From Dehalococcoidia bacterium (GTDB lineage: Bacteria; Chloroflexota; Dehalococcoidia; Lucifugimonadales; UBA3495), in assembly GCA_022825745.1 (NCBI GenBank), contig JAJDWF010000114.1:4515-68514 (forward strand): DNA of 64,000 nt. Direction: 5' to 3'. The position numbers were made by a program, and so were the translations under genes. The first letter of the stretch is position 1. The number at the start of each line of letters is the position of its first letter. Shown piece by piece: positions 7,074-58,240 of this stretch. A model generated the notes under the pieces. That model worked only from the letters and a program-made list of their open reading frames with translations. It searched no databases and was not told the origin of the DNA.

Positions 7074-8243
7074 CTAATCATCGCCGGCTGCCAACGCCGC
7101 TTCCCTGCCGGCGAACGCTGGCATCACCTCCGACGAGAAGATGGACAACTGCTCCTTGAACTCGTTCCAGGGCATACCCTCGGGCCACTGCAGCACGATG
7201 TCTTCCAGACCGGGGTACTTTGCCTCGATGTCGCGCAGGAAGTCGATGAAGTCGCCGGGGTTGCCGCAGAACCAGGCCTTCTGGTCAACGCCGTCCTCGA
7301 TGCGCGGAACCCGCGTGGGCGCGCCCGGGGTGCCCCAGGGCCGGCCCTGTTCGTCGGTATAGCGCACGAACCCAAAGGGGGCGAACCACTTGTAGCGCTC
7401 GTCGTGGAAGGGGCGTACTTTCTCGATGGCCTCCTCGCGGCTGCCGGCGATATAGAAGCCGAACCCCAGGGCCATGTCGCCGCCCAGGGGGATGTCCCGG
7501 CCGGCGCCCACGGCGGCGGAGTGGTACTGGGTAATCATCTGCTCGGCGTAAAGCTCGCCGGTGAGGGCGACCATGGCCTTGATGCCGCGCTCGGCGATGT
7601 AGTTCAGCGTGCGGCCGCTGGCGATGGGCTGCCAGATTTCCACCGGCTGGCTGACCGGTCGCGGCACCATCGTAATTTCTTTGAGGTCATAGCCGCGATA
7701 GGGCACGGTCGGGGGGATGGTGTAGTACTTGCCCTGGTGGCTCCAGGACTCCTCGTTGAACGCCTTGAGGATGACTTCCATCTGCTCCAGGAACAGTTCA
7801 CGGTTGGCGTCGTTGTCGATGACGGGGGAGCCGAAGGTCTCCACCTCGCGGGAGTGGTAGCCCCGGCCCACGCCGAAGATCATGCGGCCGCCGGTGAGGA
7901 TGTCCGCCATGGCGAAGTCCTCAGCGATGCGCAGGGGGTGCCACATGGGGATGATGTTGAAAGCCTGGCCGAATTTGAGGTTTTTGGTCTGGCCGGCCAG
8001 GTGGACGCCCATGAGGATTAGGTTGGGGATGCACTCGTAGCCTTCGTGCTGGAAGTGGTGTTCGGCCATCCACATGCAGTAGAAACCGCGCTCGTCCATG
8101 TGCTGGGCCAGCGCCTGGGCGTGGTCGTAGGCCTGCGCCAACTGCTCGTTGGTGTAGCGACGCTGGTCGGGGGGAGTGCCGTCCGCGCCCACGTTGTCCA
8201 GGTCGATCTGCCCGACGTACAAAACCGAAAACCGCTTAATCAT
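7074..8243 (-). CDS. LLM-class (luciferase-like) flavin/F420-dependent oxidoreductase
   Basis: MWMAEHHFQHEGYECIPN, LRIAEDFAMADILTGGRMIFGVGRGY. Start set at MIKRF (8243) for better SD spacing than 8252. Confidence 0.8.
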   Translation of the reverse strand: MIKRFSVLYVGQIDLDNVGADGTPPDQRRYTNEQLAQAYDHAQALAQHMDERGFYCMWMAEHHFQHEGYECIPNLILMGVHLAGQTKNLKFGQAFNIIPMWHPLRIAEDFAMADILTGGRMIFGVGRGYHSREVETFGSPVIDNDANRELFLEQMEVILKAFNEESWSHQGKYYTIPPTVPYRGYDLKEITMVPRPVSQPVEIWQPIASGRTLNYIAERGIKAMVALTGELYAEQMITQYHSAAVGAGRDIPLGGDMALGFGFYIAGSREEAIEKVRPFHDERYKWFAPFGFVRYTDEQGRPWGTPGAPTRVPRIEDGVDQKAWFCGNPGDFIDFLRDIEAKYPGLEDIVLQWPEGMPWNEFKEQLSIFSSEVMPAFAGREAALAAGDD

Positions 8244-8458
8244 CCAGCCCATGCTCCGCTGTAATAAGATTCGGCGGCGATTATAGCACGGGGCCGGCTA
8301 GGGGCGGAGCCGGCGACCGTCAGGTGGACGAAGCCTGCGTGCCTATATGCTTGCCGTCGCACCTTGCCGGGCGGGGCGCTTTGGTATGAGTTGCTGTAAT
8401 GCGCAATGCTCGTTACGAAAAACGCTGCAATGGGGAGCATATTCTACGAAACGTCAAA

Positions 8459-10458: not shown

Positions 10459-11421
10459 ATGCGCACTTACCTCCTCCGCCGTCTGGCCCTGTTCGTCCCC
10501 ACCGCCTTCGGGGTGTCAGTCTTCATCTTTCTGATGCTCCACGTGATTCCCGGGGACTACGCCACCACGCTGCTGCTGGGAGGACGGGACCAGGCGCTGG
10601 TGGCCACGGAGGAAGACTTCGCCCGGGTCCGCAACCAGTTGGGGCTGGACAGGCCGTTGCACATCCAGTACGCAACGTGGGCGGCCAAATTAGCGCGCGG
10701 GGACTTGGGAATCTCGTGGATCAACCGCCAGCCGGTGCTGGAGCGGATGCTGCCGCGCATCGCGGTCAGCGCGCAACTGGGCGTAATGGCGGTGCTGATC
10801 GCTTCCATAATCGCCATACCGGGGGGCGTCATCGCGGCGGTGCGGCAGGACACTGTCATCGACTACGTGCTGCGGTTCGTCAGCATGATTTTCGAGTCGA
10901 TGCCCAACTTCTGGATTGGCCTGCTGCTGATAGTGGGCCTGCTGACGATTTTCGACTGGATACCGCCCATTTCATACGCCAACTTGTGGGAAGACCCGTG
11001 GGACAACCTGATGATACTGATCTTCCCAGCAATGGTGGTGGGCGCGCGTAGCTCGGCGGGCATGCTGCGGATGACCCGTTCGTCCGTCCTGGAGGCGCTG
11101 CGGGAGGACTACGTGCGGACTGCCGAGGCCAAGGGCCTGTACCGCAGCCGCATCCTGTTCATTCATGTGTTGCGCAACGCACTGCTGCCGGTGGTTACGC
11201 TGGCCGGCTTTGAAGTCGTGTTCCTGATGGGCGGCCAGGTGGTGGTTGAGCAGGTGTTCAACATTCCCGGCCTGGGCAACCTTTTCATCCAGGCGGTGGG
11301 AGCCCGAGATTTCCCGGTGATACAGGCGATAGTAATGTTCATTGCCGGCGTGGTGCTGGTGGCGAACCTGGTGGTGGACTTGATGTACGCCTGGCTCGAC
11401 CCGCGAATACGGTACACGTAG
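10459..11421 (+). CDS. ABC transporter permease (DppB/OppB-like)
   Basis: MRTYLLRRLALFVPTAFGVSVFIFLMLHVIPGD..; EAA-like loop EDYVRTAEAKGL. Confidence 0.85.
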   Translation: MRTYLLRRLALFVPTAFGVSVFIFLMLHVIPGDYATTLLLGGRDQALVATEEDFARVRNQLGLDRPLHIQYATWAAKLARGDLGISWINRQPVLERMLPRIAVSAQLGVMAVLIASIIAIPGGVIAAVRQDTVIDYVLRFVSMIFESMPNFWIGLLLIVGLLTIFDWIPPISYANLWEDPWDNLMILIFPAMVVGARSSAGMLRMTRSSVLEALREDYVRTAEAKGLYRSRILFIHVLRNALLPVVTLAGFEVVFLMGGQVVVEQVFNIPGLGNLFIQAVGARDFPVIQAIVMFIAGVVLVANLVVDLMYAWLDPRIRYT

Positions 11422-11430
11422 GGGCATGAC

Positions 11431-12342
11431 ATGACGCTGCCCAACATAGCAAGCCAACGGGGCGAATCTGACGGCCAGGCGCTGACCCGGCGCCGGCTGT
11501 CCTTCACCCGTCTCACCCTGCTCTACCTGCGTTCCAAGCCCCTGGGGACGGCCGGCCTGCTGATGGTGCTGGTCGTGGCCGTGGTGGCTATTTTCGCGGC
11601 GGTGATCGCGCCCTTTGACTACCAGGCGCAGAACTACGAAGCGGTGCGCACCTCGCCCAACACGACCTTCCTGTTCGGCACGGACCAGTTCGGACGCGAC
11701 GTATTCTCACGGGTGGTGTACGGGGCGCGCATTTCCCTGATTGTCGGGTTGTTTTCGGTGCTGGCCGGCACGGGAGTGGGCGCGGTGATCGGGCTGTTTT
11801 CGGGCTACTTCATGGGCAAGACGGACGCGGTGATCCAGCGGCTGGTTGACATGTGGATGTCGCTGCCCGACCTGATCTTGGCGCTGGTTTTCGTGGCGGC
11901 GCTGGGCAACTCAATACCCAACATCATCCTGGCCATTGGGGCTACGATTCTGCCCCGGGGCGTGCGGGTCATCCGCTCCTCGACTATCTCGCTGCGGGAA
12001 ACCGACTACGTGATGGCAGCGCGGGCCATCGGGTCTTCGGACCTGCGCATCATCCTGCGGCACATCGCGCCCAACACCATGGCGCCGTTCCTGATCATCA
12101 TGTCCTCGATGTTCGGCACCGCCATTCTGACCGAGGCCGGGCTGAGCTTCCTGGGGCTGGGCATCGCTGAGCCGACGCCGTCGTGGGGCCGGATGCTCAC
12201 GGGCCAGGCGGCGCAGTACCTTTCAACGGCGCCGTGGATCCTGATCTTCCCCGGGCTGGCCATCAGCGTGACCGTGCTGGGGTTCGCCTTCGCCGGCGAC
12301 GCCCTGCGGGACATACTTGACCCCAGGCAGCGCGGACGCTAA
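11431..12342 (+). CDS. ABC transporter permease (DppC/OppC-like)
   Basis: GTDQFGRDVFSRVVYGARISL, DYVMAARAIGSS. Confidence 0.85.
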   Translation: MTLPNIASQRGESDGQALTRRRLSFTRLTLLYLRSKPLGTAGLLMVLVVAVVAIFAAVIAPFDYQAQNYEAVRTSPNTTFLFGTDQFGRDVFSRVVYGARISLIVGLFSVLAGTGVGAVIGLFSGYFMGKTDAVIQRLVDMWMSLPDLILALVFVAALGNSIPNIILAIGATILPRGVRVIRSSTISLRETDYVMAARAIGSSDLRIILRHIAPNTMAPFLIIMSSMFGTAILTEAGLSFLGLGIAEPTPSWGRMLTGQAAQYLSTAPWILIFPGLAISVTVLGFAFAGDALRDILDPRQRGR

Positions 12343-12410
12343 TCTCACCGCCCCAAATCCTGAACACGACCGGGGTTCCGGGATGTCCCGGAATACCGCT
12401 GGAGGGAATC

Positions 12411-13367
12411 GTGCGCAGTATCGACATCCATGCCCACCTGACGCCGCAGTGCTTTTTGCAAGCCATGGCCGCCGGACAGTCCTGGCACGGCGTAAATCCC
12501 GGCGACATGTTCGTCGCGCCCCGCAACGTCTGGACGCCGCAGCAGCGCATCGACGACATGAACTCGCTGGGGGTTGACGTGCAGGTGGTTTCCACGGGCG
12601 CGGCCTTCTACTTCTACGACCGGGACCCGCAGGTCATTTCGGAGATGCACCGGGAGTGCAACGAGGAAGTCCACCAGATGACCATGGACTACCCCGAGCG
12701 GTTCAAGGGTTTCGCTCAAATCCCGATGCAGGACGTGAACACGGCCATCGCCGAGCTGGAGTACGCAGTAACGCAACTGGGCCTGGTGGGGGCGATGATT
12801 AACGACACCGCCAACGGGCTGCCCTACGACGACCCGTCGCTGCTCCCGCTGTGGCGGGCCGCCGAGCAGATGGGCGCGATACTGTTCATCCACCAGCAGG
12901 GCGGCGACACGCTGGTTACGCCGCGCTCCAACCGCTACCACCTGCCCAACACCATCGGCAACCTGGTTGACCGGGCCGTTACCTTCGCGTCGTTCGTGTT
13001 CGGCGGCGTGATGGACAAGTGCCCCGACCTGAAAATCTGCCTGGCCCACGCCGGCGGGTACACTTGCTTCGGCGTCGGGCGCATGGACCGGGGCTGGCAG
13101 GTGCGCTCCGAGGCGCGGGTGAACATCCAGCAGCCGCCCAGCACCTACCTGAACCGCTTTTACTACGACTGCCTGACCCACAGCGAGGCGGCGCTGCGCA
13201 TGGTGATTGACACCGTGGGCATCGACCGGGTGGTATTCGGCACCGACTGGCCGGCGGACATGGCCATCGACCAGCCGGTTTCCTGGGTGCTGGGTTTGGA
13301 AAGCCTGACCCAGGACGAGAAGGATGCCATCCTGTGGAAGAACCTCGAGAAGCTGCTGAACATCTAA
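12411..13367 (+). CDS. Amidohydrolase-2 family protein (ACMSD-like metal-dependent decarboxylase/hydrolase), copy 1
   Basis: MRSIDIHAHLTPQ.., FGTDWPAD; GTG start after GGAGGG. Confidence 0.8.
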   Translation: MRSIDIHAHLTPQCFLQAMAAGQSWHGVNPGDMFVAPRNVWTPQQRIDDMNSLGVDVQVVSTGAAFYFYDRDPQVISEMHRECNEEVHQMTMDYPERFKGFAQIPMQDVNTAIAELEYAVTQLGLVGAMINDTANGLPYDDPSLLPLWRAAEQMGAILFIHQQGGDTLVTPRSNRYHLPNTIGNLVDRAVTFASFVFGGVMDKCPDLKICLAHAGGYTCFGVGRMDRGWQVRSEARVNIQQPPSTYLNRFYYDCLTHSEAALRMVIDTVGIDRVVFGTDWPADMAIDQPVSWVLGLESLTQDEKDAILWKNLEKLLNI

Positions 13368-13375
13368 CGGCCTCC

Positions 13376-13402
13376 GGATTCCCGCTTTCGCGGGAATGAC
13401 GG
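13376..13402. repeat. REP-like hairpin element ggattcccgctttcgcgggaatgacgg (family 2)
   Basis: 8-bp stem attcccgc/gcgggaat with tttc loop (13378-13397). A second copy lies at 37580-37606. Confidence 0.55.
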
Positions 13403-13442
13403 TGCAAATCGGATACAGCCTAATCACGGAGAGGCGCACAAT

Positions 13443-14399
13443 ATGCGAGCCATTGACATTCACGCCCATTCCACGCCCCAGTGCTTCCAGCGCGAGGTAC
13501 TGCAGGGCCGCTCCTGGCACGGCATGACCGCCGCCGAGGGCGAGTTGTTCAACCCGCGCAACGCCTGGACTCCCGAGCAACGCATCGCCGACATGGACTC
13601 CATCGGCGTGGACGTGCAGGTGGTGTCCACCAACGTGGCCTTCTACAAGTACGACCAGGACGTGGACACCACCGTCGCCATCGCCACCGACTGCAACGAT
13701 GAAGTGCACCAGATGACGCTGGACTACCCGGAGCGGCTGGCCGGCCTGGCCACGCTGCCGATGCAGGACGTGAGGGCGGCCATCGCGGAACTGGAGCGCG
13801 CCGTTACTACCCTGGGATTCAAGGGCGCGATGATCAACGACCACGTGAATGGCCGCACCTATGATGACCCGGCGTTTCTGCCCTTCTGGCGGGCGGCGGA
13901 GCAGATGGGCGCCGTGCTGCTGATCCACCAGGCCAATCCGACCATGGTGGCGCCGCGCATCGACCGCTACCACCTGCCCAACACCATCGGCAACCTGGCG
14001 GAGCGCGCCGTCACTTTCGCCTCTTTCGTGTTCGGCGGCGTCATGGACCAGTGTCCCGACCTGAAAGTATGCCTGGCCCACGGCGGCGGCTACACCTGCT
14101 TCGGAGCGGGCCGCATGGACCGGGGCTGGCTGGTGCGCCGGGAGGCGAGGGTCAACATCACGCAGCCGCCCAGCGAGTACCTGGACCGCTTCTACTACGA
14201 CTGCCTGACCCACAGCGAGCCGGCGCTGCGGATGCTGATTGACACGGTGGGCATCGACCGGGTGGTGCTGGGCACGGACTGGCCGGCGGACATGATGATC
14301 GACTGGCCGGTGGGGTGGGTGATGGGCCTGCCGTCGCTGACGCAGGATGAGAAAGAAGCGATCCTGTGGAAGAACCTGGAGAAGCTGTTGGGGCTTTAG
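13443..14399 (+). CDS. Amidohydrolase-2 family protein (ACMSD-like), copy 2 (tandem paralog)
   Basis: Collinear with copy 1 over all 318 aa (roughly two thirds identical by eye): MRAIDIHAHSTPQ.., LGTDWPAD. Confidence 0.8.
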   Translation: MRAIDIHAHSTPQCFQREVLQGRSWHGMTAAEGELFNPRNAWTPEQRIADMDSIGVDVQVVSTNVAFYKYDQDVDTTVAIATDCNDEVHQMTLDYPERLAGLATLPMQDVRAAIAELERAVTTLGFKGAMINDHVNGRTYDDPAFLPFWRAAEQMGAVLLIHQANPTMVAPRIDRYHLPNTIGNLAERAVTFASFVFGGVMDQCPDLKVCLAHGGGYTCFGAGRMDRGWLVRREARVNITQPPSEYLDRFYYDCLTHSEPALRMLIDTVGIDRVVLGTDWPADMMIDWPVGWVMGLPSLTQDEKEAILWKNLEKLLGL

Positions 14400-14547
14400 G
14401 CTGGTGGCGTTTCCTTCCGGCAATACGCCATACCTCGCATCATGAGGTCGCCTGTGACAGAGTCAAAGCTGAAGTTGATGGAATCCCGATGCCGGACAAC
14501 AAAAGGATTTTGCTCTAGCTGGATGTCTTGGATGGTCCGGTAGCGGT

Positions 14548-14790
14548 CTAGTGACTGCCATCCGTTTGGGTCCGCTCTTTGAGGGATTCCAAGGCGCGAT
14601 AGGCGAAACACCATTTGAGTACCTCGGCAGTTTCCGGTATTTCGCCCCATTCGATGAGCGCGGCCATTCGCTCGCTGGGCATTTCGTAGCGCTGTTCGTA
14701 GTCGGCGATTTCGGCTTGCAACTCCGCCATCATTTCAGCGCGGGAAACTCTGCGTACGGGAATGCCAGTGGTAGTTTCGGTGGTGGTCAT
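14548..14790 (-). CDS. Small hypothetical protein, antitoxin-like (80 aa)
   Basis: ATG at 14790 is preceded by GGAGGT. The helical acidic sequence EMMAELQAEIADYEQRYEMPSERMAALIEWGEIPETAEVLKW resembles small TA antitoxin-type proteins. No family firmly recognised. Confidence 0.4.
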   Translation of the reverse strand: MTTTETTTGIPVRRVSRAEMMAELQAEIADYEQRYEMPSERMAALIEWGEIPETAEVLKWCFAYRALESLKERTQTDGSH

Positions 14791-14904
14791 TGGGACCTCC
14801 ATTGAAAGAAGAGGAACTATCTGGGTAACGTGCTCGATTGTAGCAGACATCGTCCCTGTTCAGATGACCAGGCTCGCACTGCCGGCGGCGGAGTTGGGAA
14901 AGGG

Positions 14905-15290
14905 TCATGGGATTGCATCTGGGTTGATTGTCTAAATCGGGATTTACGGGATTTCAGGATTGGCAGGATTGGGTAGTGTGGTGGCGATTTTTGGAAATCC
15001 CGCTCATTTCCGCTCACTTCCGTTTATTTGAGTAGGGCGCTGGTGCGGGATGTGAGGGTAAATGGGGGCGGATTGGGCCGGTTTTGGAGGTGATGAAGGT
15101 GGTTTTGGCGGGCCGGTGAGAGGATTTGGGGGAGCGGCGTTTGGTGTTGGGCATTGGACGGCTCTGGGGTTGAGCGCTGGGTTGGATGTAAGTGGTTGGG
15201 TAGTTAAATGGTACGGATGGGTTGCGGGTTAAGGCAAGGGGGAAGTGTCACTGGGCAGCGTTCCCTAAAGGATGGTGATTATGGTGTGTG
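14905..15290. repeat. Non-coding, strongly G/T-rich (C-poor) tract with same-orientation GGATT(T/G)G repeats, including four tandem 9-mers
   Basis: Four tandem 9-mers: 14938-14973 cgggattta/cgggatttc/aggattggc/aggattggg. Further GGATT copies at about 14909, 15070 and 15121. A 10-bp tandem (c)cgctcattt/ccgctcactt lies at 15000-15020. Stops in all frames beyond 15017. Confidence 0.6.
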
Positions 15291-15304
15291 CCCGCCACAC
15301 GCGA

Positions 15305-15313
15305 TGGTATAAT
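15305..15313 (+). promoter_or_regulatory. Extended -10 promoter element (TGgTATAAT) for the TIR-like gene
   Basis: tggtataat at 15305-15313, 55 nt upstream of ATG 15369. The inverted repeat gtgtg-cccgc-cacac (15286-15300) sits where a -35 would be. Confidence 0.4.
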
Positions 15314-15368
15314 CAGAACGGGCTTGCGGGTTGCCGCAGGGTACGAATTAGCCACCGAGGTTTGCACG

Positions 15369-16199
15369 ATGATGAAGCCGACTAAAGCGCAAGCGAAAGA
15401 CCGTATTCAGCGGACATTGGATACGATACCAGCATTGATGTCAATGTCCTATTCTTCCCAAGAATTCACAAAATGGCACCGAACCGCGGAAATAGCCATA
15501 CAGAATACTTTCGGAGAAAACTCACAACATATCGAAACATTCAAAGAAATCCGATACACCCCAAGGTCGTTCATTATTGGAGCACCCGATCACCAAGTCC
15601 AAGCAGCATATAGACAATCCTATGTGTCTGGCCTAAAACGTGTCGAGGCCATCCTAGAATCGATGATTGAAGAAATTGAGGAGTATTGGCAGGACGACGT
15701 TCAACCGCAAACTACGAACGGGCAAGCGAGCGTGGACGAACCGATTGCCGCAAACCGAGTGTTCGTCGTTCACGGGCGGGATGAAGCAGCTACTCAAACG
15801 ATGGCGAGGTACATTGAAGGTCTGGGGCTGGAGCACGTCATATTACGAGAACAGCCCAGCGAAGGCCGCACGGTAATCGAGAAGTTTGAGGAATATGCTC
15901 AAGTGGGGTTCGCAGTTGTGCTGTGTACACCGGACGACGTGGGCGCACTTGAGAATGAACAAGACAACCTGAAACCGCGTCCGCGCCAGAACGTGGTTTT
16001 CGAGTGGGGATTCTTTCTGGGGAAGATCGGTCGCAACCGAGTGTGCGCTCTGTTCAAGGAAGGTGTCGAAATACCGTCGGACTACGCCGGCGTTATCTAC
16101 ATACAGATGGACGATTTCGGCGGCTGGCGGATGGAGTTGGCCAAAGAGTTGAAAGCGGCAGGGATGCAGGTTGACATGGACCGCCTTTTATCAACCTAA
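15369..16199 (+). CDS. TIR-like domain protein of the CAP12/PycTIR (COG4271, predicted nucleotide-binding TIR-like) family with an unassigned helical N-terminal domain
   Basis: The C-terminal half RVFVVHGRDEAATQTMARYIEGLGLEHVILREQPSEGRTVIEKFEEYAQVGFAVVLCTPDDVG..RPRQNVVFEWGFFLGKIGRNRVCALFKEGVEIPSDYAGVIYI matches my recollection of the family signature (vFivHG..LheqpnqGrTiiEK..FAvvLlTPDD..RaRQNVifElGyf.GkLGr.rV..l...v.iPSD..Gv.Y). ATG at 15369 follows a GAGG SD. The gene is visibly AT-richer than its flanks. Confidence 0.75.
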   Translation: MMKPTKAQAKDRIQRTLDTIPALMSMSYSSQEFTKWHRTAEIAIQNTFGENSQHIETFKEIRYTPRSFIIGAPDHQVQAAYRQSYVSGLKRVEAILESMIEEIEEYWQDDVQPQTTNGQASVDEPIAANRVFVVHGRDEAATQTMARYIEGLGLEHVILREQPSEGRTVIEKFEEYAQVGFAVVLCTPDDVGALENEQDNLKPRPRQNVVFEWGFFLGKIGRNRVCALFKEGVEIPSDYAGVIYIQMDDFGGWRMELAKELKAAGMQVDMDRLLST

Positions 16200-16217
16200 C
16201 CCCTACTAACCCACCCC

Positions 16218-19100
16218 CTACAACCGGCGGTTGGTTATTACCGGCTCGGAGGCGAGGAGGCGGCGCAGGCCGTCGAGGTTGGGCAGGTGCAGGATTTCGG
16301 AGAGGCCGTTGTCGAGGCGGCGGCGGGTGGGGCAGTCGGTCATGGCGGGCAGGCGCTGGAATTCGTCATCGGCTATGTGGTCGAAGAGCTGGGACAGGGC
16401 TTGCAGTTGTTCGAGGGTGATGGCGCGCACGTCCAGCGTGGGCAGCTGTTCCAGGTCGGCTTTTTTCATGCCTACCCAACTGCCTTCCGTGCTGGTGCGC
16501 TGCGCCACGATGGTCAGCAGGCCCAAACTGGAATTTAGCCATACGGCCAACGCTTTCTCGTGGGAAATCTCGTCAATCTTGATGGGCCACCACACGTTGG
16601 ACAGCACCCTGGTGTCGGTTCGCATCGCGATTACTCTGGTGGTATTCAGCCGCAATCGTTCGGCGACAAGCAGCCGGCCGGCTTGACGCCATAAGTGTTC
16701 GCCATAGCCCGGACGCTGTCCGCCTTTGGGAGTGACCAACGGAGATAGATAGGCATCCGGAGCGCAAACTAAAGACTTATGCTGTTCGGTATCGTGTCCT
16801 TCCACCATTGGATAGGCGGTCTGAACGGTAGTCCGCTCGAACCCATCGACTAACCGCCTCCGATCAGGGCCGATTTCGCCGAGTTCGGTTAATGGGCAGA
16901 GGGGGATTTGGCCGACGGTTGACTCGCCGGGAACCCACACCTCGCCGTCGTCGAGCAGGCGCAATGCGGCGCGAGTCAAGTCGGCGCGGGCGAACTGCAC
17001 GCCGGCCCATTTCTTGCCAACGAGCCTGGATTCGGGGATGGATACCAGTTCGCCGACGTGCCGGCCGTCCACTTCCACCAGGGCGGCGCCGGTGTTTTCA
17101 ATGTTGGCCGGCGTGGTGTCGGCGATGGCTTGAGCGGCGCGGTGGGCGTCCAGCACGCCGGCGGGGTTTTGCCACAGGCTGACGAAAGTGGTGCGATGTT
17201 CCTCACCGTCGTCGTTGCCGTTGGCGGGACGGCGGCGGGTGGCAATCAGCAGGGCTTCGGACAAGTCGGTGCTGTCGGAAAAGTTCCAGCGCGTCGGGTC
17301 GTGGGAGACGATGACTATGTCCAGGGTAAAGTCGCGTTCGATGAGGGAACGGGTCTGCTGCCAGGAGGGGCCGGTGCAGACGGTGGCCGGCAGAACCAGG
17401 GCCAGGCGTCCCTCGCCGGGGCGCAGCTTGGGAGACGCAGCGGCCACGAAAGCAGCGCCGAGGCCGGCGGTTGCCGTCGCCTGCCGCGACCTGAGGCGTC
17501 GGGAAAGTTCGTCTTGCAGCCGGCGGCGGTCGGCGGCGGGCAGGCTGCCGAACAGCAGGTTGCCGCCCACGGAGCGGGTGAAGGGCGGATTCATAATCGC
17601 CAGGTCCAGGTCGGGCAGCGTGGCGAGTTCTTGCTGTTCCGCGCCCTTGGAGCCGCCGCCATAGACCCGGCCGGCATCGCGAATCGTGCGGCCGCTGACG
17701 CCCATGCCGGCCGGGGACAGCGCGAACTGGACCGCCGCCTGCGATTCCCCCAGGAAGTCCAGTGAGCCCAGGGATACGTCGTCGCCGTCGGCCCCCAGGG
17801 GCATCACGTAGAGGTTGATGCGGTCAAACTGGATCTCGGGGTTCAGCATCGCCAGACTGGTGGCGGCGAAATGCACGGCGGAGAGTTGAACGTCGTAACC
17901 GTGCAGGGCTTGTTCCACCATCGCTTTGTGCAGGGCCGGAGCGTTCTGACCGCCGGCCTCGGTGTGGCGGCGTTCCGCTTCGGCGGCCACGGCCATCAGC
18001 AGGGTACCGGTGCCGCAGGCAATGTCGGCGACGTTGAGAGACGCGGGAAACTCGTGGTGGCTCCAGTCAACTCCCTGCGGCCAGTCGTGGAACACCAGCC
18101 GCGTGAGCAGCGTCGCCGCCGGGACGGAGGTGTAATAGGCGCCAGTGAATTTGGCGTCGGTGAGCAGCGTGTGGAAGAGCCGGCCCGACAGGTCGTGTCC
18201 CGCCAGGTGGCTGGTGTCTTCCACCGCCTTGAGGATTGGCTCCATCACCGGGCCGTGCCAGAGGTGTGGCAGGTCGGCATAGTCCAGGATGGTCAGCATT
18301 CTTTTGGCAAGGTCGAACACCGGCACGTAGTCGATGGTTTCGCAGATGTGATCCCAAACCTTCAGCAGCCCGGGCACACCGCCATCCCGCCAGGTTTCGG
18401 CAACGGTGGGTACAGCGTCATTGGTGGACGCGAGGCGCAAATGGAAGGCCAGGGCGTTGAATATGACCAGGCAGCCGATGCGCAGGGCCTTGGCGCGGTC
18501 AGTTTCCCGGTCGGTCTGGGCGATGGCCTCCCTGACCAGGCGGGCCAGCCGGGCATAGGTGGCGAGTTTGGCCGCCGATTGCTCGACGGCGTGCTCGATG
18601 ACGGCGGCGGCGGCGACCACGCGGTCGGTGCCCTCCAGTTCCAGCGGCAACACGCGCAAGTGGTCGGCGATCTCGGCGGGAGAGCCGAACCGGGAGCGTA
18701 ATTCGTCAACCGGTTCGCCCCGGGAACCGTGCAGCCACCATTCAAGGTCGCCGGCGTGTTCAAGCCCCTCGCGGGTATCCTCCAGGTATTTCAACCCCTC
18801 CGGGTAAAGGACGCCGATAACGCCCAGCGCGTCAGGGAACTGCTGCAATCGAGTGTCCAGCTGGCTTTCCAACTGGCCGACGGAATCCTCCCACTTGCAT
18901 TCCAGCAGCACGGTGTCCCCGGTCTTCAGCGTGATGCGAACGTCGGGAGTCGTGTTGCGGTTGCGCCGTTCGGCGCGGGCGGGTATGCCCTGGTCCCGGA
19001 GCAGTTGGGCGAGGAACGTGTTGACCGCTTCCTCGCGGATGACTTCCCGGCCTCCGTTGCCGGGTAGAGTGGCGTTGCGGTTTCGTCGTGGTCGAGGCAT
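16218..19100 (-). CDS. Single-chain type IIG-like restriction-modification enzyme: N-terminal PD-(D/E)xK nuclease-like domain + gamma-class N6-adenine DNA methyltransferase + C-terminal TRD-like region
   Basis: TPDVRITLKTGDTVLLECKWE (PD-x13-ExK); YYTSVP (motif X-like); VADIACGTGTLLMA (motif I); LAIMNPPFTRS (motif IV, NPPF). The C-terminal 300 aa end in a TRD-like LNSSLGLL..LEQLPTLD pattern. Confidence 0.7.
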   Translation of the reverse strand: MPRPRRNRNATLPGNGGREVIREEAVNTFLAQLLRDQGIPARAERRNRNTTPDVRITLKTGDTVLLECKWEDSVGQLESQLDTRLQQFPDALGVIGVLYPEGLKYLEDTREGLEHAGDLEWWLHGSRGEPVDELRSRFGSPAEIADHLRVLPLELEGTDRVVAAAAVIEHAVEQSAAKLATYARLARLVREAIAQTDRETDRAKALRIGCLVIFNALAFHLRLASTNDAVPTVAETWRDGGVPGLLKVWDHICETIDYVPVFDLAKRMLTILDYADLPHLWHGPVMEPILKAVEDTSHLAGHDLSGRLFHTLLTDAKFTGAYYTSVPAATLLTRLVFHDWPQGVDWSHHEFPASLNVADIACGTGTLLMAVAAEAERRHTEAGGQNAPALHKAMVEQALHGYDVQLSAVHFAATSLAMLNPEIQFDRINLYVMPLGADGDDVSLGSLDFLGESQAAVQFALSPAGMGVSGRTIRDAGRVYGGGSKGAEQQELATLPDLDLAIMNPPFTRSVGGNLLFGSLPAADRRRLQDELSRRLRSRQATATAGLGAAFVAAASPKLRPGEGRLALVLPATVCTGPSWQQTRSLIERDFTLDIVIVSHDPTRWNFSDSTDLSEALLIATRRRPANGNDDGEEHRTTFVSLWQNPAGVLDAHRAAQAIADTTPANIENTGAALVEVDGRHVGELVSIPESRLVGKKWAGVQFARADLTRAALRLLDDGEVWVPGESTVGQIPLCPLTELGEIGPDRRRLVDGFERTTVQTAYPMVEGHDTEQHKSLVCAPDAYLSPLVTPKGGQRPGYGEHLWRQAGRLLVAERLRLNTTRVIAMRTDTRVLSNVWWPIKIDEISHEKALAVWLNSSLGLLTIVAQRTSTEGSWVGMKKADLEQLPTLDVRAITLEQLQALSQLFDHIADDEFQRLPAMTDCPTRRRLDNGLSEILHLPNLDGLRRLLASEPVITNRRL

Positions 19101-19188
19101 GGCTGCGGTTCCTCTTGATTCGGCGCATCATAGCAAAATTACCCGCTATAATCGCTGCATCCGAAAATGTAGCGAGGGAGGCAATCCC

Positions 19189-19965
19189 ATGGATTTGACC
19201 CTGAACGGGAAGGTAGCAATTATCACCGGCGGCAGCCGCGGTTTGGGTCGCCAGTGCGCGTTGGCGCTGGGGCAGGAAGGCTGCGCCGTGGGCATCTGCG
19301 GACGCGACAGCGACCAGGTGGGCAGGACGGTGGCGGAACTCCAGGGCCTGGGCATCAAGGCCAGCGGCAGCCAAGCCGACGTCACCAACCAGGACGACGC
19401 GGCCCGCTTTTTGCAGGAAACGACCGACGCGCTGGGCGCGCCGGACATCCTGGTGAACAACGTGGGCGGCCGGCGCGGTTCCGTGCTTTTCGACGAGACC
19501 TCCATGGAGCAGTTTCTGGAGGGGCTGGAGGTCAACCTGATCTCCGCGGTGCGGATGACCAAGCTGGCCTTGCCGCACATGCAGGCCCAGGGCTGGGGCC
19601 GCGTCATCAACATCGCGTCGATCTACGGCCGCGAGCACGGCGGGTCGGTGGACTACATGACGGGCAAGGCGGGGATGATCGCGTTTTCCAAGCACCTGGC
19701 GCTGCAACTGGCGCAGACCGGCGTGCTGGTCAACTGCGTCGCGCCCGGCAGCATCGACTTTCCCGGCAGCAGTTGGGACCGCTTCCAGCAGAACAACACC
19801 CCCGAGGTGGTGGCCGAGTTCATCGACCGCAACCTGCCCATGGGCAAGTTCGGCTGGCCGGAACCCATCGGCGAGACGGTGGCGTTCCTGGCCTCGGACC
19901 GGGCCGGGCTGATCACCGGCGCGTGCATCAACGTGGACGGCGGGCAGTCGAAATCGCTGTTCTAG
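19189..19965 (+). CDS. SDR family oxidoreductase (FabG-like)
   Basis: MDLTLNGKVAIITGGSRGLGR (TGxxxGxG), NNVG, and a YxxxK region (YMTGKAG). GAGGGAGG SD; TATAAT at 19146-19151. Confidence 0.85.
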   Translation: MDLTLNGKVAIITGGSRGLGRQCALALGQEGCAVGICGRDSDQVGRTVAELQGLGIKASGSQADVTNQDDAARFLQETTDALGAPDILVNNVGGRRGSVLFDETSMEQFLEGLEVNLISAVRMTKLALPHMQAQGWGRVINIASIYGREHGGSVDYMTGKAGMIAFSKHLALQLAQTGVLVNCVAPGSIDFPGSSWDRFQQNNTPEVVAEFIDRNLPMGKFGWPEPIGETVAFLASDRAGLITGACINVDGGQSKSLF

Positions 19966-20783
19966 CCGGGTTGGTGCACCGTCCCCACGAATTCCTGCCA
20001 GGCCAGCACGCACTGCGCCGGCGCTGAGTGCTGGACGTAGCCGCCGGCGCCGGGGATGCGGGCCAGCGTGCAGTTGGGCATGAGGTCGGCCTGACCCTGG
20101 GCGCGGTCGGGGATGTCGCCCTCGCTTAGTTCGCCGACCATCGCCAGGGCCGGCGTTTGGATGGACGGCAGCCGGTCGGTGAGGTTCTGTGTGCCCAGGT
20201 AGGCGAGGGTCTCCAGCACCACGTGGCGGGCGGTCTGGCCCATCTGCTGGATGTACCACTCGTGATGCTCGGGAGCGGCGTCGGCGCTGACCCGCCGGCC
20301 GCCGGTGGCGCGGGCCCAGCCCTCAGTGCCTTCCTCCTGCACCAGCCGGTAGTAGTTCTGGTAGGTGTCCACGCCGGTGAAGTTGTAGGGCGAGGTGCAA
20401 GTGGTTACGGTGTGCAGGCGCTCGGGGTACTGGTAGGCGAACTGCAACGCGATAGTGCCGCCGATGGTCTCGCCTATGAGGTGCGCCCGGTCCACCTCCA
20501 GGTAATCGAGCAGGTTTCGCAGGTCGCCGGCGAAGCCTTCCAGCGACCAGTCGTAACTGTCCGGCGCCGGCACCGTGGAGCGTCCGAACCCGCGCGCATC
20601 GACGCGGATTACGCGGTATTGGCGGGCCAGCAGGGGCGGCCAGGCGTACCAGAGGCGGCCGTTCTTGGCGTTGCCGTGGTGGAGCACGATGGTCTCCACC
20701 GTCGCCGGGTCGCGCCACGGGTCGGTGAAGTTATCGTCGTCGTAGTACATCTCAAGGTTGTCAGCAAGGGGCGCGATGGGCAT
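19962..20783 (-). CDS. Alpha/beta hydrolase fold protein
   Basis: IVLHHGNAKNGRLWY..RVDARGFGRS..HLIGETIGG (nucleophile elbow-like GxxxG). ATG 20783 after AGGAGG. Confidence 0.8.
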   Translation of the reverse strand: MPIAPLADNLEMYYDDDNFTDPWRDPATVETIVLHHGNAKNGRLWYAWPPLLARQYRVIRVDARGFGRSTVPAPDSYDWSLEGFAGDLRNLLDYLEVDRAHLIGETIGGTIALQFAYQYPERLHTVTTCTSPYNFTGVDTYQNYYRLVQEEGTEGWARATGGRRVSADAAPEHHEWYIQQMGQTARHVVLETLAYLGTQNLTDRLPSIQTPALAMVGELSEGDIPDRAQGQADLMPNCTLARIPGAGGYVQHSAPAQCVLAWQEFVGTVHQPG

Positions 20784-20796
20784 GGTTACCTCCTTA

Positions 20797-21174
20797 TTAC
20801 ACGCCAAGCCCGCCGCCCGGCGTCTGGTCGGCCAGCGGGATTTGCACGCTGACGCGGTCAACGTCGCCGACGCTGCGGGTGGTATGGCCGCGACCGGTCA
20901 GGTCTTCGCACAGCTCGATGTCGCCCACGTTGAAGATGCGCTTCGTGCCGTCGCCCAGGCCGATTTCCACCTGGCCCTGCAGGGTGATGACGTACTGGCG
21001 GCGCGGCGCGGTGTGGAAGTCCACGAGTTGGGTGGGCTTGAGGCGGCTGAACTGAACGCCGGTGGCGGCCTCCGTCGCCGTGCGCATGGCGTGGCCCACC
21101 TGCTCGAAGGGAAGGTCAAGGTCCTCGATGTGCGACTCGCCGTCCTCGCCCGTGTAAATCCTGACTACCTGCAT
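20797..21174 (-). CDS. Cupin-domain small protein
   Basis: MQVVRIYTGEDGESHIEDL..DFHTAPRRQYVITLQGQVEIGLGDG is a cupin-like beta pattern. SD GGAGG before ATG 21174. Confidence 0.6.
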   Translation of the reverse strand: MQVVRIYTGEDGESHIEDLDLPFEQVGHAMRTATEAATGVQFSRLKPTQLVDFHTAPRRQYVITLQGQVEIGLGDGTKRIFNVGDIELCEDLTGRGHTTRSVGDVDRVSVQIPLADQTPGGGLGV

Positions 21175-21327
21175 CTGCTTAAACCTCCGGTTCCCGTTTC
21201 GGATGCGGCCATCATAGCACCTGATATACCGACGCGGGGAATCGCATTTGCCTGCCTTGTCGTTAGCAAATACAATGGAGCGTAGTGCGGATAATTGATC
21301 ACCGGCGCGCCTCGCAATGGACAGGCT

Positions 21328-56255: not shown

Positions 56256-56284
56256 TTGCCCACTGGTGATAGCGGTGGTATAAT
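56256..56284 (+). promoter_or_regulatory. Promoter candidate with extended -10 (TTGCCC-17-TATAAT, TGg upstream) ahead of nusA
   Basis: ttgccc at 56256-61; tggtataat at 56276-84. Confidence 0.35.
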
Positions 56285-56452: not shown

Positions 56453-58240
56453 ATGAAAAGCGATTTCATGATGGCGTTAAATCAGTTATCTGCCGAACGC
56501 GGGCTACGCAAGGAACTGGTCCTGAACAAGGTGGAGGTGGCGCTGGCCACCGCGTTCCGCCGCGATAGCGTTGCCGGGGCCAAGAACCTGTCGGTGAAAC
56601 TCAACCCGAACACGGGCGACATCAGCATTTTCCCCCTGCGGACGGTGGTGGACGAAGTGGACGACCCCGAGACGCAGATCCTGCTGTCCGAGGCTTTGAG
56701 ACTCGTTCCCGACGCCCAGGTGGACACCGAGATTCCCGAGTCCGAGGAAGTGTCCTACGACACCAGCCGCATCTCAGCTCAAACGGCGCGCCAGGTGCTG
56801 ATGCAGGGGTTGCGTGAGGCGGAAAGGGAAAAGACCTTTGAGGAATACTCCGGATACCAGGGCGAGATAATCAGCGGCAGCGTCGAGAGCATTGAAAAAG
56901 GGCCGACGGTGTTCATCAACCTGAACCCCCACCAGGCCCAGAACCAGAATCGGGCGCGGGGCATCATGCGTCCCGACAACCAGGTCGGCAACGAACGGTA
57001 CCGCAAGGGCCAGAACCTCAAGGTGCTGCTGGTGGAAGTCCAGCAGACCACGCGGGGGCCCGAGGTTGTGGTCAGCCGTTCGCACCGCGACCTTTTGCGT
57101 CGCCTGATGGAGGCGGAAGTACCGGAGATCAGCAACGGCACGGTGGAAATTCGCGCCATTGCCCGGGATCCCGGGATCCGCAGCAAGGTGGCGGTGGCAT
57201 CCCACCAGGACGGCGTTGACCCGGTGGGCTCCTGCATCGGGCTGCGGGGCAACCGTATCCAGAGCATCGTCAACGAGTTGCAGGGCGAAAAGATCGACGT
57301 CATAGAGTGGGACTCGAACCCGCAGGTTATGATCTCGCGCGCCCTCAGCCCGGCGGACGTGGGCGCGGTGGAGCTGGACGCCGATGAACGCACCGCGTAC
57401 GTGGTGGTTCCCGAAACCCAGATGTCGCTGGCTATCGGCCGGGACGGGCAGAACGCCAAGCTGGCGGCTCGCCTCACCGGGTGGCGGCTGGACATCAAGA
57501 ATGTTGAGCAGTGGGAGGCCCTGCGGGCGGCCCGCGCCGCCGAAGCCGCACGCATAGCAGCCGAACAGGCTGCCGCGTTGGCCGAAGCCGAGGCGCAAGC
57601 TGAGGCCGAAGCCCTGGCTGCCGCAGCGGTTGCGGAAGAGGCCGAGGTGGAAACCCTCAGCGTCGCCGAAGCCGCCGAGGCTGCGATTGCGGAAACCGGC
57701 CTGTCCGTGGAAACGCCCGAAGCCGTCGAACTCCACGAGGAGGTGCCGGAGGTCGAGGCCACGGCTGCCCTGGAAGAAGCTCCGGCGGTGATCGAAGAAA
57801 GCGTGCCCGAAGTGGCTGAGCCGGTTGCGGAAGAAGCTGAGGCCGCCCCGGATTACGATGAGGAAGCCCTCTTCGCCGCGCTGCTGGCGGAGGAAGCGGC
57901 GGCCGCCGCTCCGGTGGAAACGCCGAGCCAGGAGGAGCCGGAGGCAGAACCGGAACCCGTCGGCCTGGGCGTTGAAGCTCTTGAAAACCTCACCCTGGAC
58001 GACGTAGTTGAAGACTATGACGAAGAAGAAGATGAACTTGAAGACGAAGAGCTTGACGAGGAAATGAGCGAACTGCTCGCGGGCCTGCCTAACCTTGCTC
58101 CCGACGCCGGGAAGATCCGGTTCGCGGAAGACATCGTCGGCGACTTCAGGGGCGGTTCCGGACGACGGCGCCGCGGCGGCGGCAACCGGCGCGGCGGCAA
58201 CGTGCCGGGCGCGCGCGGCCCGGGCCCCCGCCGACGCTAA
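56453..58240 (+). CDS. nusA: Transcription termination/antitermination factor NusA with long Ala/Glu-rich and Arg/Gly-rich C-terminal extension
   Basis: N-terminal and S1/KH core ([14 protein letters not shown].., [53 protein letters not shown]). About 245 aa of low complexity follow, ending [17 protein letters not shown]. Confidence 0.9.

Follow-up and report, generated by a model that had tools for sequence, protein, structure and literature searches.

A gene for a TIR-like protein of 276 residues is located at positions 15369-16199 (plus strand) of the window, by which we mean the whole stretch of 64,000 nucleotides of Dehalococcoidia DNA analysed here. In the present study we propose that this gene, a member of the PADLOC family PDC-S35, encodes a single-polypeptide abortive-infection candidate, in which a C-terminal TIR domain would act as an NAD+ glycohydrolase (NADase) effector and a helical N-terminal domain (N-domain) would control its assembly. 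We give this reading a probability of roughly 0.55. The domain identities, the catalytic motif, the fold, the purifying selection, the absence of a partner, the portability of the N-domain, the genomic contexts and the promoter were all computed here, and a related genome, denoted L001, served as the comparison for synteny, promoter and the rates of nonsynonymous and synonymous substitution (dN and dS). The gene and its parts are as follows.

15369-16199, plus strand: complete coding sequence of a PDC-S35-type stand-alone TIR-like protein, 276 residues and stop codon (list of open reading frames, PADLOC, homologs)
15369-15689, plus strand: helical N-domain, residues 1-107, a portable module and proposed sensor, regulator or assembly domain (AlphaFold2, profile search)
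15549-15608, plus strand: hypervariable, indel-rich loop of the N-domain, residues 61-80, candidate specificity determinant (column entropy, identity to L001)
15690-15755, plus strand: disordered variable linker, residues 108-129 (22 residues; pLDDT, column entropy)
15756-16196, plus strand: CAP12/Pycsar-type TIR-like domain, residues 130-276, predicted NAD+ glycohydrolase effector (Pfam, PDB sequence matches, Foldseek)
16002-16004, plus strand: codon of E212 in NVVFEWG, predicted catalytic glutamate (invariant, aligned with the glutamate of Cap12)

The C-terminal half is a TIR-like domain of the Cap12 and PycTIR type

The original prediction, which was made from the sequence alone, had recognised a TIR-like domain of the CAP12/PycTIR family in the C-terminal half of the protein. 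The open reading frame (ORF) exists on the plus strand at 15369-16199, all the peptide strings quoted from it are found in the translation, and the family assignment is borne out by a strongly significant match to PF10137 (E=9.6e-38; score 129.3 bits, with the cutoff at 24.7; positions 1-118 of the 119 in the profile) and by the conserved motifs HGRD, TPDD, RxRQNV and PSD. The match, expected at about residues 150-270, lies at residues 130-248; the domain is therefore present as described, with its start at residue 130 instead of about 150. A search of PDB sequences matched the TIR part to Cap12 (9lmq and 7un8) and PycTIR (8jsj), and nothing else of the protein.

An AlphaFold2 model of the full-length protein, built from 52 homologs, has a flavodoxin-like TIR fold from residue 130 with pLDDT values mostly of 80-90. 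In a Foldseek search with this model the ten best matches are all chains of TIR-STING filaments (9lmq, 7un8 and 9lmr; E=1.9e-6 to 2.8e-4), followed by SARM1, DNPH1/Rcl and the TIR of SPARTA. The acidic residue of the NVVFEWG segment, on which the activity of the domain had been said to hinge, is kept: E212 is invariant in the 52 homologs, as are G136, D189, D190, R204, R206, Q207, N208 and the segment P236-D238 in the same alignment. E212 aligns with the glutamate of NVVFEFG in the Cap12 chains 9lmq and 7un8, and SfTIR-STING depletes NAD+ by means of its catalytic glutamate. The amoeba protein TirC, which belongs to the same PF10137 clade, forms filaments and is a toxic NADase, and the exchange E162A of its predicted catalytic glutamate abolishes both NADase activity and toxicity (10.64898/2026.04.30.722052). 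The TirC residue E162 would be the equivalent of E212.

The N-terminal domain is helical and lacks a recognisable relative

The N-terminal part had been presented as an uncharacterised helical domain of about 150 residues. Its helical nature holds, no significant match was found in Pfam, PDB folds or viral folds, and only the length had to be revised, to about 107 residues followed by the linker. When modelled alone with AlphaFold2, the N-domain is predicted with high confidence (pLDDT 93.4, pTM 0.84) and consists of helices at residues 6-23, 31-48, 53-59 and 74-106. The full-length model reaches a pTM of only 0.50, so that no confident fixed packing between the N-domain and the TIR is predicted, and its pLDDT falls below 50 at residues 111-126. 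The helices of the N-domain are conserved and contain the invariant residues K6, W36, R38, F48 and E102. The loop at residues 61-80 shows a column entropy of 2.5-2.75 bits, the highest in the protein apart from the linker at residues 108-129, which is likewise of high entropy; residues 71-80 have 37% gaps in the alignment, and the identity of the loop to the L001 copy is 30%, against 75-90% in the flanking segments.

A Pfam scan of the protein returned PF10137 alone and left the N-domain without a match. The same database searched with 42 N-domains at E<=5 gave scattered single matches, the commonest of which was ARTD15_N in 3 of the 42 (E>=0.15). Foldseek comparison of the N-domain with the PDB gave generic helical bundles, with a best E of 0.22 and Ocr at a TM score of 0.23, and comparison with the viral folds of BFVD gave a best E of 0.23. 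The helical stalk of SiaD (7e6g), matched by the N-domain profile among PDB sequences at E=0.0046 (domain i-E=0.04), was rejected as a low-information helix similarity in which W36 is unmatched.

The N-domain is a portable module

An N-domain-only profile was searched against 1.84 billion cluster representatives (50% identity), where it matched 1511 representatives at E<=1e-3 and 644 at E<=1e-10. The best 150 matches were classified with our own profile hidden Markov models and then with Pfam and PADLOC. Many of these 150 carry the PF10137 TIR, and others show alternative C-termini, all of which follow the same N-domain and a similar linker. In five proteins the N-domain precedes a canonical TIR_2 domain (P0152, P0226, P0246, P0259 and P0269), and in four a restriction-endonuclease fold of the DpnII/MboI type, which also matches the pAgo-associated 'Aga_Helical-REase' models (P0217, P0219, P0249 and P0257). 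Single proteins carry PNP_UDP_1, resembling the 'PN-superfamily' effector of CBASS (P0228), a nucleoside 2-deoxyribosyltransferase-like domain (P0221), and AbiJ_NTD4, with a further match to PDC-S32 (P0190). Further C-termini have no Pfam match; as read by eye, those of P0183 and P0268 appear to contain an Rx4-6H HEPN-like motif and those of P0187 and P0236 a putative transmembrane helix.

Conversely, many PF10137 proteins in the fetched loci have no such N-domain, and both halves thus behave as mix-and-match parts. The occurrence of the same N-domain ahead of at least seven effector-type C-termini provides indirect support for a sensing or regulatory role, and the pattern is the signature of an input module placed ahead of interchangeable abortive-infection effectors. 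In four proteins (P0127, P0156, P0158 and P0180) two N-domains stand in tandem before the TIR, which hints that the N-domain may pair with itself as a dimer.

A bolder proposal can be built on these data. The N-domain, of some 105 residues, could be an undescribed and widespread infection-sensing or assembly module, founding a superfamily of abortive-infection systems, each made of one protein with a freely exchangeable effector (a CAP12-type TIR, a canonical TIR, a restriction-endonuclease fold, a PNP, a deoxyribosyltransferase-like, an AbiJ/HEPN-like or a membrane-spanning effector). The loop at residues 61-80 would serve as the recognition surface, and the lineage embedded in Type III restriction-modification (RM) loci might in addition read the state of the restriction complex. 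We put this forward tentatively, as an idea with the odds somewhat against it.

Five siblings with a non-TIR C-terminus were looked up in their genomes. All stand alone between housekeeping genes, usually near HicAB, PemK or Uma2 modules and with no RM genes nearby, so that the idea of an N-domain which by itself dictates embedding in RM loci finds no support. The top-scoring match of the N-domain profile, P0121 (769 residues), is highly repetitive and matches many unrelated Pfam families (for example P53, in 13 stretches); it appears to be an artefact or a synthetic concatenation in the database and no real relative.

Foreign composition and purifying selection

The gene had been judged by eye to be richer in AT than its surroundings of about 65% GC, as would fit horizontal acquisition. 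The measured GC content is 0.509, compared with 0.644 for the whole window (z=-4.25), no stretch of 831 nucleotides in the 64-kb window has a lower value, and the GC content at third codon positions is 0.56, against 0.80-0.91 in neighbouring genes. Horizontal acquisition of the gene is thus supported.

The protein is 66% identical in amino acids to its L001 counterpart, while neighbouring proteins are 89% and 93% identical. The dS relative to L001 is 1.16, about twice that of the neighbours (0.58-0.62), and the dN is 3-5 times theirs. The ratio dN/dS amounts to 0.20 for the whole gene, 0.28 for the N-domain and 0.13 for the TIR; these are rough estimates, as dS is near saturation and codon usage differs. 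The low ratio indicates that the gene is functional and under purifying selection. Either it outpaces its surroundings in evolution or it was swapped for a more distant allele.

The PDC-S35 family and its distribution

Residues 12-273 match positions 6-262 of the 264 in the PADLOC PDC-S35 model PDLC05005 (E=5e-85), and four further PDC-S35 models match with E=2.5e-74 to 3.1e-42. A search of the protein database yields 5348 homologs. Among the best 120, query coverage reaches at least 97% in 118, with identities of 49-77%, and almost all of them have 264-303 residues. The original prediction had implied that the architecture was novel, a suggestion that has to be withdrawn, given the end-to-end match to an existing PADLOC candidate and the thousands of full-length homologs. 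One of these homologs is named 'nucleotide-binding protein [Chloroflexota]'. The PDC systems were defined as defence candidates through guilt by embedding, the host loci being those of BREX, DISARM or Type I RM (Payne et al. 2024, 10.1101/2024.01.29.577857).

In a collection with one genome per species, full-length relatives were found in Dehalococcoidia, Caldilineaceae, Gamma- and Alphaproteobacteria, Acidobacteriota, Binatia, Nitrospirales, Planctomycetota, Bacillota and a metagenome-assembled genome (MAG) of Halobacteria. Small plasmids of Burkholderia pseudomallei, Pseudomonas avellanae and Arthrobacter carry near-full-length copies, and four phage records contain the TIR part only.

Two further observations concern individual copies. 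On small Burkholderia and Pseudomonas plasmids a PDC-S35-like gene of about 295 codons overlaps by 4 nucleotides the start of a tyrosine recombinase/integrase gene (L094, NZ_CP073739.1, 5857-7697; L095, NZ_CP026567.1, 5845-7685), which suggests that the two are co-transcribed. In a Dehalococcoidia MAG (L043, 9986-10782) the PDC-S35 homolog is split over two reading frames, which points to a frameshifted pseudogene or else to an error in the assembly.

Recurrent insertion into Type III restriction operons

ORFs within 4 kb of the gene were clustered in 51 full-length loci, with a recount by tblastn over 54 loci. No universal partner gene was found in the 51 loci and, besides RM genes, no neighbour family occurs in more than five of them. 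A Type III Mod gene (identified by PF01555 and PADLOC MTase_III, E=1e-145) is located directly upstream on the same strand in 16 of the 51 loci, or 17 of 54 by tblastn, and a Type III Res gene (PF04851) downstream in 13 of 51, or 16 of 54. In about a third of the full-length loci the PDC-S35 homolog is thus inserted between Mod and Res. Such Mod-X-Res cassettes occur in several phyla (L009, L012-L016, L020, L025, L028-L030 and L034, near locus position 10001). Wherever the Mod ORF was called (L009, L012, L014 and L015), its stop codon overlaps the first base or bases of the start codon of the homolog, and strong conservation of Mod extends through its 3' end right up to the inserted gene, so that the two genes are probably translationally coupled. 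This recurrent association with RM genes is the strongest contextual clue.

Five cassettes also hold an AAA_15/21 ATPase of the PD-T4-4_A/PDC-M47 type with a partner of about 190 residues (L015, at 11118-13477; L017, L018, L019 and L027), adjacent to the PDC-S35 gene, which marks the gap between Mod and Res as an apparent hotspot of defence cargo. HEPN/MNT modules are present in three or four loci. In a neighbour-joining tree most embedded copies fall into one large clade, with L017, L034 and L070 as outliers, and the clade of the window copy (with L001, L081, L082 and L002-L004) adjoins embedded members.

The window copy itself faces a different kind of gene.

16218-19100, minus strand: context gene, not part of the protein, convergent, encoding a methyltransferase-like protein of 960 residues (weak profile matches, motifs, recurrence)

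The two genes lie tail to tail, 18 nucleotides apart. The 960-residue protein has weak similarity to MTase_II, MAD2 and PglX, no Pfam family above threshold and no relative in the PDB by sequence, and more than 1000 homologs labelled 'hypothetical'. Its motifs DIACGTGTLL, of the form (D/x)xACGTGTL, and NPPF are kept in distant copies and are of the N6-adenine-methyltransferase type; the protein looks like an uncharacterised fused enzyme of the restriction/modification type. Its N-terminus may also contain a PD-(D/E)xK-like motif (DV...LLECKWE), which the L021 copy does not keep.

Four loci pair a PDC-S35 gene with this gene, namely the window, L001, L021 and L022. L001, whose synteny with the window runs from 15301 to 21221, has the same pairing with an 89% identical 960-residue protein. 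In L021 and L022 the counterparts next to the PDC-S35 homologs share no more than 28-30% identity, and the genes are oriented differently, which argues that the adjacency is not merely inherited. In L081 the SDR and hydrolase genes adjoin the TIR-like gene as in the window, but the 960-codon gene is missing; hence the pairing is not obligatory.

These contexts bring up the alternative that the protein is a guard of an RM system. In the known precedent, PrrC, an ABC-ATPase-like anticodon nuclease lies in the EcoprrI Type Ic RM locus and is physically linked to its RM partner. On this model the TIR would be kept silent by an N-domain bound to the neighbouring methyltransferase or restriction complex, and a phage anti-restriction factor that disables or remodels the complex would release the protein for assembly and NAD+ depletion. 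The third of full-length homologs between Mod and Res, with an overlap of start and stop codons that implies co-expression, would fit such a guard; the other two thirds, however, have no RM neighbour, and neither do the five stand-alone siblings that share the N-domain. Likewise, the persistence of the pairing with the 960-residue protein in four loci, in spite of 28-30% identity and different orientations, speaks for a partnership, but L081 keeps the same chromosomal site without that gene, and the pair in the window is convergent and forms no operon. Even the embedding in BREX, DISARM or Type I RM loci by which PDC-S35 was first defined, which points in the same direction, has to be set against the insertion of unrelated PD-T4-4/PDC-M47 cassettes into the Mod-Res gap, as expected of a general insertion hotspot with no specific partnership. 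Consequently, we consider a guard unlikely.

Proposed mechanism and alternative explanations

For the preferred reading, an abortive-infection candidate in one polypeptide, we infer that the TIR is an NADase, that assembly activates it, that the N-domain acts as a sensor and that the protein protects against phage. By analogy with TIR-STING, PycTIR and amoeba TirC, the C-terminal TIR would be an NAD+ glycohydrolase effector with E212 as the catalytic residue, inactive as a separate protomer and active once assembled into oligomers or filaments. The gene is transcribed from its own extended -10 promoter, and in uninfected cells the N-domain, on its flexible linker of about 22 residues, would keep the protein off. 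Upon infection a trigger would lead the N-domain to nucleate or permit the assembly of the TIR; the likeliest trigger may be a phage-derived protein or nucleic-acid cue, read partly via the loop at residues 61-80. The outcome would be a collapse of NAD+ and consequently growth arrest or death of the infected cell. The gene spreads horizontally, often as cargo within or next to RM loci.

Several points weigh against this proposal. The N-domain has no recognisable fold relative, so its role as a sensor is deduced from the logic of the architecture. The association with defence comes from about one third of the loci, mostly of one clade, and thus represents fewer independent events than loci. The window gene is not inside an RM operon, and its local defence context consists of the convergent methyltransferase-like gene and an ORF with weak similarity to TumA. 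Our literature search found no paper mentioning PDC-S35. Finally, the amoeba proteins TirB and TirD, which also belong to the PF10137 clade, are inactive as NADases (10.64898/2026.04.30.722052).

As improbable as the guard, in our estimation, is a TIR that is active without depleting NAD+, either producing a nucleotide-derived signal in the manner of Thoeris ThsB or, like DNPH1/Rcl and nucleoside 2-deoxyribosyltransferases, cleaving an N-glycosidic bond in some other nucleotide. TIR domains can indeed produce signals (10.64898/2025.12.03.692087), yet the systematic survey of Thoeris left stand-alone TIRs aside along with the effector-type TIRs, as non-signalling, and no conserved adjacent effector gene exists here to read a signal. 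Foldseek also returns the DNPH1/Rcl and deoxyribosyltransferase folds (E of about 5e-3 to 7e-2), and siblings hold NDT-like and PNP domains at the same position; the nearest relatives in sequence and structure are nevertheless the NAD+-depleting effector TIRs of CBASS and Pycsar.

The protein could instead be an addiction or stabilisation module of mobile DNA, that is, a latent TIR toxin held in cis by the N-domain which penalises the loss of an island or plasmid. A composition foreign to the host genome, the common proximity to toxin-antitoxin modules and the copies on small plasmids, with a gene overlapping the start of a tyrosine recombinase gene, are consistent with such a function. Nevertheless, post-segregational killing needs a separately unstable antitoxin, which a single polypeptide does not have, many chromosomal copies lie between housekeeping genes with no mobility genes nearby, and the embedding in RM operons together with PD-T4-4-type cassettes fits defence better. 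We therefore hold this explanation to be very unlikely. That the gene encodes a housekeeping 'nucleotide-binding protein' without a role in conflict, as its RefSeq/GenBank name has it, can hardly be right: the name is an automatic label, the family is patchy across phyla, foreign in composition and variable in genome position, its contexts are RM or defence loci and plasmids, and the protein diverges faster than its neighbours (66% against 89-93% amino acid identity to L001).

Comparison with known systems

PDC-S35 itself is the closest entity, with the same end-to-end match including the N-domain, a single gene, no conserved partner and loci of the restriction type. It is, however, a catalogue entry whose hosts are BREX, DISARM and Type I RM loci, whereas here Type III RM operons and the 960-codon methyltransferase-like gene are found, and the window copy is adjacent to the latter and not embedded. 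What is new here is the portability of the N-domain and the existence of a large lineage translationally coupled inside Type III restriction operons.

Among characterised proteins, Cap12/TIR-STING (SfTIR-STING of Sphingobacterium faecium; 7un8 and 9lmq) shares the PF10137 subfamily and the NVVFE(F/W)G motif and is the best structural match; by analogy the window protein probably uses the same assembly-activated NADase chemistry. The window protein differs in the lack of a STING or SAVED sensor and of a CD-NTase nearby and in the reversed domain order, with the TIR at the C-terminus, and its scores with the NCBIfam equivalogs for Cap12 are 43.8 and 36.9 bits, where the cutoff is 450. PycTIR (8jsj) likewise ends in a PF10137 TIR that is preceded by a regulatory region, and the PycTIR effector depletes NAD+. 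The N-domain is however unrelated to that region by sequence and fold search, no pyrimidine cyclase is found near the window gene, and the PADLOC PycTIR model and 8jsj match the TIR part only (residues 166-248 and 181-245, respectively).

Ten long ORFs at 8.5-24.7 kb were scanned and belong to transport (ABC-transporter), amidohydrolase, SDR, hydrolase, MFS and oxidoreductase families, with one ORF left without a match; there is no cyclase or CD-NTase among these ten and the immediate neighbours. In the case of Thoeris, no ThsA-type partner is conserved and no ThsB model is among the PADLOC matches of the window protein. Membership of CBASS, Pycsar and Thoeris was consequently discarded, as no cyclase, sensor domain or partner gene was found.

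The closest working analogies are single-protein systems. SpbK of Bacillus subtilis is a single-gene TIR NADase, reported to work through abortive infection and studied together with YonE, a protein of the phage SPbeta (PMC12847820), and the DUF4062 protein Swarozyc is a single-protein TIR/TIR-like NADase that is reported to assemble with a phage component (10.64898/2026.05.01.722283). Both belong to other TIR subfamilies and have other non-catalytic regions than PDC-S35.

Effector-associated domains (EADs) are likewise small, non-enzymatic, all-helical N-terminal domains placed ahead of many effectors, but by definition they come with a further copy that is joined to a core NTPase-type component, mostly in the neighbouring gene (Kaur et al. 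2020, PMC7159879). Searched in six frames with the N-domain profile (hmmsearch), the 64-kb window contains one copy and each of 60 loci a single gene, that of L043 being frameshifted, and EAD-type coupling was rejected. PrrC resembles the embedded homologs as an abortive-infection effector encoded within an RM operon. The effector considered here is a TIR, however, and most members of the PDC-S35 family have no RM neighbour.

Stand-alone TIRs are routinely set aside in surveys, as no partner gene hints at how they are switched on. PDC-S35 is a large, mobile and compact family in which 276 residues carry both input and output, and it offers a tractable model of the control of a TIR NADase without a second messenger. 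Knowing what the N-domain binds would show at one stroke how an entire group of candidate defence proteins is activated, and the repeated coupled insertion between Mod and Res is a clean test case for cooperation with the host restriction system as opposed to hitch-hiking. In annotations, the label 'nucleotide-binding protein' should give way to that of a TIR-like defence candidate of the PDC-S35 type.

Start codon, promoter and upstream DNA

Two further features precede the coding sequence.

15357-15360, plus strand: probable ribosome-binding site GAGG, 8 nucleotides 5' of the ATG (read from the sequence)
15305-15313, plus strand: extended -10 element TGgTATAAT, TGGTATAAT, without a recognisable -35 (sequence, enrichment, identity in L001)

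The start is the ATG-ATG at 15369, as homologs open with MMKPTK... and the GAGG lies 8 nucleotides upstream; the GTG at 15288 was excluded as a start by the same homologs. The promoter of its own that had been read in the form TGgTATAAT withstood analysis. The pattern TGNTATAAT has three matches in the 64-kb window against 0.16 expected from shuffles, and all three sit 5' of a long ORF on the same strand. Furthermore, the block of 16 nucleotides ATGGTATAATCAGAAC is unchanged in L001 while the flanking DNA has diverged. A sigma-70 scan detected no -35 element, and hence no full -35/-10 pair, for the promoter at 15305-15313.

The two other perfect matches to TGNTATAAT are at 8280-8288 (minus strand), 28 nucleotides before the ORF at 7074-8252 (minus strand), and at 56276-56284 (plus strand), about 170 nucleotides before the ORF at 56453-58240 (plus strand). 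As each lies 5' of an ORF, the organism appears to use extended -10 promoters.

An inverted repeat gtgtg/cacac had also been reported to overlap the promoter. Its arms are of 5 bp, comparable inverted repeats occur in 27.5% of random 50-nucleotide windows, a repeat finder at seed 6 gave no report of it, and it is absent from L001; we regard it as a chance feature, and a function as operator was therefore dismissed.

Further upstream, positions 14851-15300 form a non-coding stretch of about 450 nucleotides, G-rich and C-poor on the plus strand with a GC skew of up to +0.44 and no convincing ORF. It contains the short tandem repeats CAGGATTGG (two copies at 14955) and CCGCTCACTT (2.3 copies at 15000). 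The stretch stops exactly at 15301, where the synteny with L001 starts, and it may have been left behind by an insertion or rearrangement. Scans for Rfam families and tRNA genes gave no matches anywhere in the window.

Other genes of the window

The ORF at 14548-14850 (minus strand) is listed with 100 residues and more likely has about 80, from an internal start MTTTE... after GGAGG. It has a GC content of 0.545 and weak matches to the antitoxin TumA (NCBIfam, E=0.013) and to PADLOC PDC-M44A (E=0.0011); an overlapping ORF of 84 residues at 14396-14650 (minus strand) gave no matches. This region may be a degraded toxin-antitoxin module.

At 12411-13367 and 13443-14399 (plus strand) lie two adjacent paralogous Amidohydro_2 genes of 318 codons each, a tandem duplication. 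The ORF of 692 residues that runs antisense over this pair (12345-14423, minus strand) is almost certainly an artefact of high GC content.

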